NCBI RefSeq assembly: GCF_003334785.1
Contig: NZ_QOWV01000014.1
Strand: one strand, 5' to 3'
Source of the DNA: Escherichia coli
GTDB lineage: Bacteria > Pseudomonadota > Gammaproteobacteria > Enterobacterales > Enterobacteriaceae
DNA: 64,000 nucleotides
This document shows positions 12,926 to 41,810 of the stretch, piece after piece. The position numbers and the translations under genes were made by a program. Numbering within the stretch: the stretch's first letter is position 1; the number at the start of each line of letters is the position of its first letter. Under the pieces are notes generated by a model. It saw only the letters and a program-made list of their open reading frames with translations. It was not told the DNA's origin and did no database searches.

Positions 12926-12985
12926 TTGATTAAGATCACCACGCGTTACCTGGGTGGTCTTAATCTGTTTATCTCTTTTTCTTTC
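12926..12985 (+). terminator. Candidate intrinsic terminator after rihA
   Basis: Inverted repeat GATTAAGATCACC / GGTGGTCTTAATC followed by a T-rich tract. Confidence 0.5.
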
Positions 12986-39101: not shown

Positions 39102-39275
39102 CAAAATTACCTTTACATGAAAAATAGACACAAATGCTGTGTCGGTTACCAGTACACCAATTGTGGTACGCTTTGTCCAGTGTAACTTTACTAAAAAGTG
39201 ATAAAAGTCGCGTTATTTTTGATGTTACTTATTTTAGCTATTGATTTTAAAGAAGTTACTAAAACTTCATTTGTC

Positions 39276-39836
39276 TCAAAACTGAAAGCGCATCCAGGCA
39301 AAGTACACATTGCCATTGTTGTAGGTACCCGGAATGTAGGTCATCTGAAAAGTCACTGGGCCATAACCCACGGAGGCCAATGGCAGTAGAACCGGGAGAG
39401 GGATGTAATTCCAGTTATCGCGTGCCGTTACGCCAGCGGTGAATCCCAGACCTAAATGAAAATTTTCATCCGCCAGCGGTCGCCAGGTACTTTCCCATCC
39501 GTATCCGGCAATCGGTTCCCATTTGTTCCACGAGTCCTTAAATGCCATGGCATACAGGCCATGCCAGTTTCCTTTTTCATCCCAACGCGACAGGCCAAAA
39601 CCGCCACCCCACGGTCGCTCGTTATAGCGATCGGTTTTTTCTTTGTCGTAAGCGAAACGTGCATGCCAGGTGATGGCAGGAATATATAAATCATAATGTT
39701 CAGGCTGTTGCCAGGTTTGTGCAATATTTTCTCTAAACGTTGTCATCCACTCATCTGCGTTAGCAAAAACTTTACCAACGCTGATTAACTGAATAAAAAC
39801 AAAGGAAAAGATAGCGACATATTTACTCACGTTCAT
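39276..39836 (-). CDS. pagP: Lipid A palmitoyltransferase (outer membrane beta-barrel)
   Basis: Start at the internal ATG ([25 protein letters not shown]..., signal peptide), 186 aa. Confidence 0.9.
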
Positions 39837-40321
39837 TTGTGACCATAAAACATTTATCAAAAATCTACTACTAGCATAGCAAAGCTACAATTAACATAAC
39901 CTTAATAGACCCAACATAAAGAATAATCTGAATAGCTGCTCTATTTATTTCCGCTTGTTCAAGTTAAATATTTCCGCGCATCGATTAAAGATGATGCGTC
40001 GTTTTCTGCGATGGGAATAGTCAAAAAAGAAAAACCAAGTCTTTTTTGATGACAAAATGCAATCAAGGAAAAATTATTTTATTTTTTAACGAGATACAAC
40101 AATCATCTTAACGAAGTATATAATATATATCGTCAACCTATGCTCATATTAGATTATTTTTTGAGCGCACAGCCGCAGCTAACACCATTGCAATTAACAA
40201 ATTTGCATCAATCCACCATCAATTTGCACACATTATTATGTGATAATTGCCAACCGCTAAATATGCGTTTTGTTATCTATGTATAAAAACAGCAACTTCA
40301 ATGTCTTAATGGCAGTTTTTA

Positions 40322-40335
40322 TTGATTTTAATCAG
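40322..40335 (+). promoter_or_regulatory. Candidate FNR-type site in the dcuC upstream region
   Basis: TTGATTTTAATCAG matches TTGAT-N4-ATCAA at 9 of 10 positions, about 96 bp upstream of the dcuC ATG in an AT-rich region. Confidence 0.4.
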
Positions 40336-40424
40336 CATTCATCGCCAATTTATTGGGCATATTTTTTCCTTAAGCTTTAGGAATTTTTTATTATTTACTT
40401 TGGGGCCTGGAGACAGGAAAAATT

Positions 40425-41810
40425 ATGCTGACATTCATTGAGCTCCTTATTGGGGTTGTGGTTATTGTGGGTGTAGCTCGCTACATCATTAAAGGGTATT
40501 CCGCCACTGGTGTGTTATTTGTCGGTGGCCTGTTATTGCTGATTATCAGTGCCATTATGGGGCACAAAGTGTTACCGTCCAGCCAGGCTTCAACAGGCTA
40601 CAGCGCCACGGATATCGTTGAATACGTTAAAATATTACTAATGAGCCGCGGCGGCGACCTCGGCATGATGATTATGATGCTGTGTGGATTTGCCGCTTAC
40701 ATGACCCATATCGGCGCGAATGATATGGTGGTCAAGCTGGCGTCAAAACCATTGCAGTATATTAACTCCCCTTACCTGCTGATGATTGCCGCCTATTTTG
40801 TCGCCTGTCTGATGTCTCTGGCCGTCTCTTCCGCAACCGGTCTGGGTGTTTTGCTGATGGCAACCCTATTTCCGGTGATGGTAAACGTTGGTATCAGTCG
40901 TGGCGCAGCTGCTGCCATTTGTGCCTCCCCGGCGGCGATTATTCTCGCACCGACTTCAGGGGATGTGGTGCTGGCGGCGCAAGCTTCCGAAATGTCGCTG
41001 ATTGACTTCGCCTTCAAAACGACGCTGCCTATCTCAATTGCTGCAATTATCGGCATGGCGATCGCCCACTTCTTCTGGCAACGTTATCTGGATAAAAAAG
41101 AGCACATCTCTCATGAAATGTTAGATGTCAGTGAAATCACCACCACTGCTCCTGCGTTTTATGCCATTTTGCCGTTCACGCCGATCATCGGTGTACTGAT
41201 TTTTGACGGTAAATGGGGTCCGCAATTACACATCATCACTATTCTGGTGATTTGTATGCTGATTGCCTCCATTCTGGAGTTCCTCCGCAGCTTTAATACC
41301 CAGAAAGTTTTCTCTGGTCTGGAAGTGGCTTATCGCGGGATGGCAGATGCGTTTGCTAACGTGGTGATGCTGCTGGTTGCCGCTGGGGTATTCGCTCAGG
41401 GGCTTAGCACCATCGGCTTTATTCAAAGTCTGATTTCTATCGCTACCTCGTTTGGTTCGGCGAGTATCATCCTGATGCTGGTATTGGTGATTCTGACAAT
41501 GCTGGCGGCAGTCACGACCGGTTCAGGCAATGCGCCGTTTTATGCGTTTGTTGAGATGATCCCGAAACTGGCGCACTCTTCCGGCATTAACCCGGCGTAT
41601 TTGACTATCCCGATGCTGCAGGCGTCAAACCTTGGCCGTACCCTTTCGCCCGTTTCTGGCGTAGTCGTTGCGGTTGCCGGGATGGCGAAGATCTCGCCGT
41701 TTGAAGTCGTAAAACGCACCTCGGTACCGGTGCTTGTTGGTTTGGTGATTGTTATCGTTGCTACAGAGCTGATGGTGCCAGGAACGGCAGCAGCGGTCAC
41801 AGGCAAGTAA
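40425..41810 (+). CDS. dcuC: Anaerobic C4-dicarboxylate transporter DcuC
   Basis: 461-aa polytopic membrane ORF at the conserved position between pagP and dpiA. Confidence 0.9.
   Translation: MLTFIELLIGVVVIVGVARYIIKGYSATGVLFVGGLLLLIISAIMGHKVLPSSQASTGYSATDIVEYVKILLMSRGGDLGMMIMMLCGFAAYMTHIGANDMVVKLASKPLQYINSPYLLMIAAYFVACLMSLAVSSATGLGVLLMATLFPVMVNVGISRGAAAAICASPAAIILAPTSGDVVLAAQASEMSLIDFAFKTTLPISIAAIIGMAIAHFFWQRYLDKKEHISHEMLDVSEITTTAPAFYAILPFTPIIGVLIFDGKWGPQLHIITILVICMLIASILEFLRSFNTQKVFSGLEVAYRGMADAFANVVMLLVAAGVFAQGLSTIGFIQSLISIATSFGSASIILMLVLVILTMLAAVTTGSGNAPFYAFVEMIPKLAHSSGINPAYLTIPMLQASNLGRTLSPVSGVVVAVAGMAKISPFEVVKRTSVPVLVGLVIVIVATELMVPGTAAAVTGK

Follow-up and report, generated by a model that had tools for sequence, protein, structure and literature searches.

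Relation to described FNR-dependent promoters

At the class II FNR promoters of narG, dmsA, nirB, pflB P6 and yfiD, FNR is centred at -41.5. The region upstream of dcuC in Escherichia coli appears to share this organization, with a 14-mer that would replace the -35 element, a 22-bp gap, a weak -10 element and strong anaerobic induction, although narG, nirB and yfiD have stronger FNR boxes (PatSer scores of 14.8-17.3 versus 12.4 for dcuC). The likeness extends to class II CRP promoters such as galP1, where a protein of the same family binds as a dimer overlapping the -35 region, but the dcuC box has a TTGAT half-site and a 4-bp inner spacer instead of TGTGA-N6-TCACA, and the signal is oxygen rather than cAMP. 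Like dcuB, dcuC encodes a Dcu carrier, is induced anaerobically in an FNR-dependent manner and has an FNR ChIP peak. Regulation of dcuC is reportedly independent of DcuR. The top FNR site of dcuB, unlike that of dcuC, lies at -132.5 (Myers et al. Table 1, PMC3688515). According to a review, dcuB requires DcuSR and fumarate, and nitrate represses it through NarXL; unlike dcuB, dcuC has a spacer in which no NarL heptamers were found.

The FNR site of dcuC is itself already known, as is evident from RegulonDB, the review literature and a genome-wide study. By 2006 dcuC was tagged as FNR-regulated in RegulonDB, with the interaction based on Zientz et al. 1999, and reviews place DcuC under FNR activation. 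Myers et al. 2013 (PLoS Genet 9:e1003565, PMC3688515) list CTGATTAAAATCAA in Table S6 as a predicted FNR site for dcuC/pagP at 655281 (U00096.2). The entry has a PatSer score of 12.38 and an ln p of -10.96, which narrowly clears their cut-off of -10.75, and it falls, as Tables 1 and S5 also record, at an FNR ChIP-seq peak in K-12 that does not overlap Fis, H-NS or IHF. Their Table 1 places dcuC in Category 1, the directly FNR-activated genes, with one motif, a summit at 655,298, and both sigma-70 occupancy and expression increased anaerobically; it gives no prior binding evidence for dcuC and cites Zientz 1999 for expression. In an RNA-seq comparison of wild type with an fnr deletion, dcuC is 'Activated' by FNR (Table S8), and its aerobic/anaerobic ratio of 0.0498 (Table S12) corresponds to expression about 20-fold higher without oxygen, as the preliminary description of this DNA had supposed. 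That description proposed the box unaware of this record.

The published site and the one described here agree in 14-mer, position, regulator, target and direction of regulation. The record leaves the start site and the promoter class of dcuC open. What our analysis adds to it is a cross-genus footprint with a fixed 22-bp geometry. The result has little importance beyond annotation, other than that a reading of the bare sequence recovered a true, experimentally supported operator; its residual value is that the footprint predicts both where transcription starts (near 40370) and which promoter class applies (class II).

The pagP-dcuC locus

All positions refer to the window, which is the whole 64,000-nucleotide stretch of E. 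coli DNA that was analysed. Its strand is the E. coli chromosome reversed relative to the K-12 orientation. The 1.3 kb surrounding the box is found in 5,423 of 5,426 complete genomes and is 100% identical in several of them, and the MG1655 gene set at the locus is dpiBA, dcuC (b0621), pagP (b0622), cspE and crcB. The features relevant to the promoter are the following.

39276-39836, minus strand: pagP coding sequence, lipid A palmitoyltransferase, divergent from dcuC (open reading frame and RefSeq annotation)
40322-40335, no strand assigned: FNR binding site TTGATTTTAATCAG, centre 40328.5 (sequence, Myers 2013 Table S6, conservation)
40336-40352, plus strand: variable stretch from box to -10, with no recognisable -35 hexamer (conservation, sequence)
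40353-40357, plus strand: conserved TTnGG (T-17, T-16, G-14, G-13) abutting the -10 (conservation)
40358-40363, plus strand: candidate sigma-70 -10 hexamer CATATT, which is CACATT in most other genera (conserved spacing)
40368-40373, plus strand: predicted FNR-dependent start at about 40370 (U00096.3 656,023), corresponding to a 5' UTR of some 55 nt (position of the -10)
40387, plus strand: 454-sequenced 5' end at -38 from the ATG, within a T-run (Mendoza-Vargas 2009 Table S1)
40415-40418, plus strand: Shine-Dalgarno-like AGGA, 6 nt 5' of the dcuC ATG (sequence)
40425-41810, plus strand: dcuC coding sequence, anaerobic C4-dicarboxylate transporter, 461 aa (open reading frame and RefSeq annotation)

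The start codons of dcuC (40425, plus strand) and pagP (39836, minus strand) enclose a divergent spacer of 588 bp (39837-40424) with a GC content of 31.3%, compared with 50.3% for the whole window. The box centre is 96.5 bp from the dcuC ATG and 492 bp from that of pagP. As first described, the 14-mer agrees with TTGAT-N4-ATCAA in 9 of the 10 positions: its left half has no mismatch, and its right half, ATCAG, ends in G where the consensus has A. It is a 14-bp imperfect palindrome whose half-sites are of the FNR type, with T in the first position and a 4-bp centre. The gap between the box and CATATT, given initially as about 22 bp, measures exactly 22 bases (40336-40357).

Correspondence with the published binding site

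The Table S6 sequence CTGATTAAAATCAA is the reverse complement of the window box TTGATTTTAATCAG. In K-12 the 14-mer occupies U00096.3 656,058-656,071 and is identical to that of the window, and the published FNR ChIP summit maps to 40317, which is 11.5 bp from the box centre. As a cross-check on the coordinate conversion, the hscC entry of Table S6 falls on window position 12926 with an equal offset. The K-12 spacer differs from that of the window by a single base, at 40321, outside the box. Because the spacers are nearly identical and the box is unchanged, the published ChIP data apply to the window site, and the FNR box assigned to dcuC in the preliminary description is the sequence found at the ChIP-seq peak of this directly FNR-activated gene. 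In the accessible literature, we found neither a site-directed mutation of the dcuC box nor an in vitro footprint of it.

The one divergent base lies directly 5' of the box. Position 40321 is an A in the window, as it is in the majority of sequences across genera (55 of 79), and a C in K-12 and in most E. coli.

Conservation across the Enterobacteriaceae and within E. coli

With one genome taken per species, we obtained 80 DcuC loci, which represent at least 15 genera within the Enterobacteriaceae. The pattern TTGAT-N4-(A/G)TCA(G/T) occurs 5' of dcuC in all 80, usually 90-110 bp from the ATG. In an ungapped alignment of 79 sequences anchored on the box, TTGAT is kept in 78-79 of the 79 and TCA in every one, while 12 different tetramers fill the central N4. 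This distribution points to purifying selection on the half-sites from which the central spacer is exempt.

The 17 bases 3' of the box are largely variable, with an information content mostly below 1 bit. They are followed by a conserved block, T-T-n-G-G-C-A-(C/T)-A-T-T, in which the TTnGG portion is nearly fixed (T-17 in 79/79, G-14 in 78/79, G-13 in 77/79) and so are four positions of the -10 hexamer (A-11 in 77/79, A-9 and T-8 in 79/79, T-7 in 77/79). Box and hexamer are 22 bp apart in 77 sequences and 21 bp apart in the other two. Under the strict pattern CAnATT, a hexamer stands exactly 22 bp after the box in 76 of the 79, and the other three have TACATT at 22 or CACAAT at 21. Extended -10 promoters carry the motif TGn. 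By analogy, we infer that the conserved TTnGG may be read as a partial extended -10 element. Farther upstream of the box, a modest A-tract near -84 to -81 is the only feature of the ungapped profile.

Two positions at the 3' edge of the box behave unlike its core. The final G at 40335 (the C of CTGAT on the other strand) is non-consensus and yet kept in 74 of the 79 sequences, with T in the other five. Among the 62 other ChIP-bound FNR sites in Myers Table S6, none has C at this outer position. It looks, from its conservation, like a sub-optimal half-site that has been maintained. The three bases that follow the box are moderately conserved, and read CAA in most genera and CAT in E. coli.

Within E. 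coli, an 81-bp core is present in 5,324 of 5,426 complete genomes; only 107 of the 5,324 match it at 99% or better. In the three divergent E. coli alleles that we examined, all variable positions are outside the box and the -10.

Some individual loci are unusual in other respects. The Citrobacter amalonaticus S646 locus (L046) carries a GC-rich, repeat-like insertion of about 235 bp between the -10 and the dcuC ATG, so that its box centre-to-ATG distance is 334 bp compared with 99 in the sister strain L008; its FNR box and -10 are conserved. The insertion resembles a small mobile repeat within the 5' UTR. The records named 'Chryseobacterium sp. 18061' (L027) and 'Pantoea sp. BAV 3049' (L011), whose labels point outside the Enterobacteriaceae or to distant genera, encode DcuC proteins that are 90-91% identical to that of E. 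coli and have the same promoter footprint. Both records are probably mislabelled or contaminated.

Promoter architecture and transcription start

These data make it likely that the box is the operator by which FNR activates dcuC, in a class II arrangement with a start near 40370. The 22-bp gap places the site centre at -41.5 if transcription begins 7 nt after the hexamer, at about 40370, and in the compilation of Myers et al. (PMC3688515), the site lies at -41.5 +/- 4 in 19 of the 23 FNR-activated promoters whose start is known. The class II arrangement is favoured because the spacing is rigid across genera while the intervening sequence changes, as direct contact between FNR and polymerase predicts. 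The sequence GCATTC at -35 to -30 matches TTGACA at none of its six positions, and a promoter scan returned no sigma-70 consensus promoter for the region of the box and -10, as expected of an activator-dependent promoter. The class II placement with CATATT as the -10, proposed at the outset, thus has the backing of conservation (a gap of 21-22 bp in 79/79) rather than of a mapped start.

In the mechanism that we propose, a dimer of [4Fe-4S] FNR would bind TTGATTTTAATCAG when oxygen is absent. The site would overlap the place where a -35 element is otherwise expected, at a fixed 22 bp from the weak -10 CATATT, so that the bound protein, centred at about -41.5, could touch RNA polymerase directly. 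The sigma-70 holoenzyme would thereby be recruited and begin transcription near 40370, and DcuC, the succinate efflux carrier, would as a result be induced about 20-fold in the absence of oxygen. From the geometry we infer both where exactly transcription begins and that FNR makes a class II contact; if the contact forms, activating regions 1 and 3 would presumably mediate it, as established knowledge of FNR suggests.

The conserved GGCAC also led us to consider a sigma-54 promoter, which we rejected. Such a promoter has GG at -24 and GC at -12, spaced 10 bp apart, but the GC is missing: after GG-N10, E. coli has CC and the other sequences have bases that are not conserved. The sigma-54 paper that was retrieved deals with dcuD, not dcuC.

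The dcuC entry of Myers et al. reads 'TSS not in peak region' (PMC3688515), and no dcuC transcription start mapped anaerobically was found in the accessible literature. The available portions of the Kim 2012 start-site tables for E. coli and Klebsiella (KPN_00654) and of the Cappable-seq tables yielded no usable dcuC entry. The sole experimental 5' end that we found is listed by Mendoza-Vargas 2009 (Table S1) with position -38 relative to the ATG, the method HTPS(454), a frequency of 4 and a predicted -10 of 'CTTAAGCT'. This end, at window position 40387, would put the box centre at -58.5 and not at -41.5. The cultures from which the end derives are said not to have been anaerobic.

Taken at face value, the 454 end would favour a functional FNR box in a class I-like promoter, where transcription starts at about 40383-40390 and FNR, at about -54 to -61.5, acts solely via the alpha C-terminal domain. 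With A-40390 as the start, the box centre would fall exactly at -61.5, and Table 1 of Myers et al. (PMC3688515) does contain a few activated promoters with sites at -56.5 to -74.5. However, the -10 proposed for this end (CTTAAGCT, 40369-40376, with TAAGCT at 40371-40376) is not conserved across genera or even within Escherichia and varies in E. coli AH21C082, and there is no acceptable -10 located 7 nt upstream of 40390. The end itself falls inside a run of six T residues, 11 nt 3' of its proposed -10, and was seen in four reads of a 454 data set that is prone to homopolymer errors; it may be a processed end or the product of a minor promoter. The invariant 22-bp spacing between box and hexamer is, moreover, a prediction of class II geometry and not of class I. 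We therefore regard a class I-like promoter as improbable.

In the available portion of the Myers et al. peak data (PMC3688515), the only sigma-70 peak reported in the spacer increases from 37 to 366 anaerobically. Its position, about 39873, is on the pagP side of the spacer and 455 bp away from the box; on those data the peak neither helps nor excludes a dcuC-proximal promoter.

Other regulators and the divergent gene

The box might instead serve mainly another protein of the CRP/FNR family, such as CRP, or FNR bound there might act chiefly on pagP or on local DNA architecture. Several observations are compatible with such a role: the outermost base of the right half-site, a discriminating position, is not that of the FNR consensus, pagP expression increases 3.4-fold anaerobically (Myers Table S12, PMC3688515), and many FNR ChIP peaks have no effect on expression. 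The left half, however, is TTGAT, which is of the FNR type and not the GTGA of CRP, and the inner spacer is 4 bp rather than 6; on half-site type and spacer length we rejected a CRP site. In addition, dcuC is reportedly not subject to glucose repression. Against a function directed at pagP, the box is much closer to the dcuC ATG than to that of pagP, and its spacing to the dcuC-facing -10 is kept even in 34 loci that have no PagP match in the 1.5 kb upstream. The table of FNR-dependent expression contains dcuC and not pagP, and it has already been reported that an fnr mutant no longer induces dcuC anaerobically. A principal role for CRP, pagP or DNA architecture is accordingly very improbable, and FNR activation of dcuC remains the preferred reading.

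Motif score and chance expectation

Matches of at least 9/10 to the FNR consensus are more frequent in the window than expected, with 8 observed versus 2.86 expected, and none of 100 shuffles reached 8. We also scored the window with a symmetrised position weight matrix that was built from the 62 other ChIP-bound FNR sites of Myers et al., with the dcuC site left out. The box scores 11.4 bits, which is below all 62 bound training sites (the lowest of which scores 11.8) and ranks third in the window, where about 2.4 equally good sites are expected per 64 kb. The motif match by itself is consequently not significant at the scale of the window, and the case for function rests on position, conservation and published in vivo binding. 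For the spacer the expected number is only 0.02, and the next best FNR-like word there scores 2.4 bits. In the matrix scan, which the preliminary description called for, the box is the sole FNR-like word of the spacer.

The top match of the window is TTGATTAAGATCAC, which scores 16.3 bits and is located upstream of hscC at 12926-12939. In Myers 2013 Table S6 (PMC3688515), TTGATTAAGATCAC (682,677) is unbound by FNR in vivo and lies inside an H-NS ChIP region. That a better-scoring site is silent in vivo means that score alone cannot settle function or occupancy, and the hscC match is a useful reminder that motif score is no predictor of occupancy on its own.

A functionless chance match in AT-rich DNA would agree with these expected numbers and with the other seven 9/10 matches of the window, none of which is ChIP-bound and the best of which is the silent one at 12926, but it has a negligible probability for the dcuC box, since published FNR occupancy in vivo and FNR-dependent expression, together with near-total conservation over at least 15 genera while the flanks diverge, have in practice already refuted it.

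Remainder of the pagP-dcuC spacer

The spacer was initially called unusually long and AT-rich and was thought to hold more regulatory sites. In 46 of the 80 loci pagP and dcuC are likewise divergent, and the spacer there ranges from 281 to 899 bp (median 460). At 588 bp and 31.3% GC, the spacer of the window is indeed long and AT-rich, but given this range its length is not unusual for the locus. Three further candidate elements are present.

39891-39907, minus strand: ArcA-like direct repeat TATTAAGGTTATGTTAA, 11/12 (consensus match only)
39906-39922, minus strand: PhoP-box-like repeat TCTTTATGTTGGGTCTA, 10/12 (consensus match only)
40193-40210, minus strand: ArcA-type element TGATGCAAATTTGTTAA, which contains TGTTAAT and is 112-128 bp upstream of the box (9/12 to TGTTAA-N5-TGTTAA)

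Across genera, no 7-mer is more strongly enriched 5' of the FNR box than TGTTAAT, which occurs in 43 of 78 sequences versus 4.7 expected, nearly always on the minus strand and 120-160 bp upstream of the box. An ArcA-type repeat that matches at 10/12 positions or better is found in 39 of the 78 sequences, compared with 2.6% of shuffles. Equivalents of the ArcA-type repeat occur in loci L007, L018-L020, L024, L034, L049, L052 and others. In an arcA mutant, dcuC expression is 4.1-fold lower and pagP expression 2.8-fold lower (Park et al. 2013), and the same study has a predicted ArcA site in the spacer that lacks a ChIP signal. The conserved, predicted ArcA-type element fits the arcA dependence of both genes and could explain it.

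It is conceivable, though we consider it doubtful, that the spacer is a shared anaerobic control region. An unannotated class II dcuC start near U00096.3 656,023 would be combined with the element at 40193-40210, through which phosphorylated ArcA would co-activate both divergent genes, and the sub-optimal outer FNR base would limit the response to high levels of active FNR. If this arrangement exists, then it would tie lipid A palmitoylation (pagP) and succinate export (dcuC) to one redox signal.

Near pagP, TATTAAGGTTATGTTAA overlaps TCTTTATGTTGGGTCTA by two bases, 55-86 bp upstream of the pagP ATG, and the sigma-70 ChIP peak at about 39873, from the available portion of those data, is nearby. 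For matches of at least 10/12, one ArcA repeat is observed versus 0.27 expected and two PhoP repeats versus 0.54. With these ArcA-like and PhoP-like repeats and the arcA effect on expression, the suggestion of additional regulatory sites is plausible yet unproven. The spacer also contains one 8/9 match to the IHF core, at 39855.

Other candidate features in and around the spacer were set aside or are recorded here as minor observations. A 48-aa open reading frame at 40140-40286 was rejected: it has no Shine-Dalgarno sequence and contains a 2-nt indel in Escherichia relatives. A paper on MavR reports only a change in dcuC expression and has no bearing on the promoter. A search of 39200-40600 against Rfam at E <= 1 gave no match. 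Midway through the spacer, the dcuC strand (39976-39999, plus strand) contains a hairpin that resembles a terminator, GCGCATCGATTAAAGATGATGCGT, with CGTTTTCTGC directly after it; at the same position, L003 has a different hairpin, and L004 and L006 have none. On the pagP strand of the spacer, a Shigella study predicted a small RNA, Ssr31, that was positive by RT-PCR.
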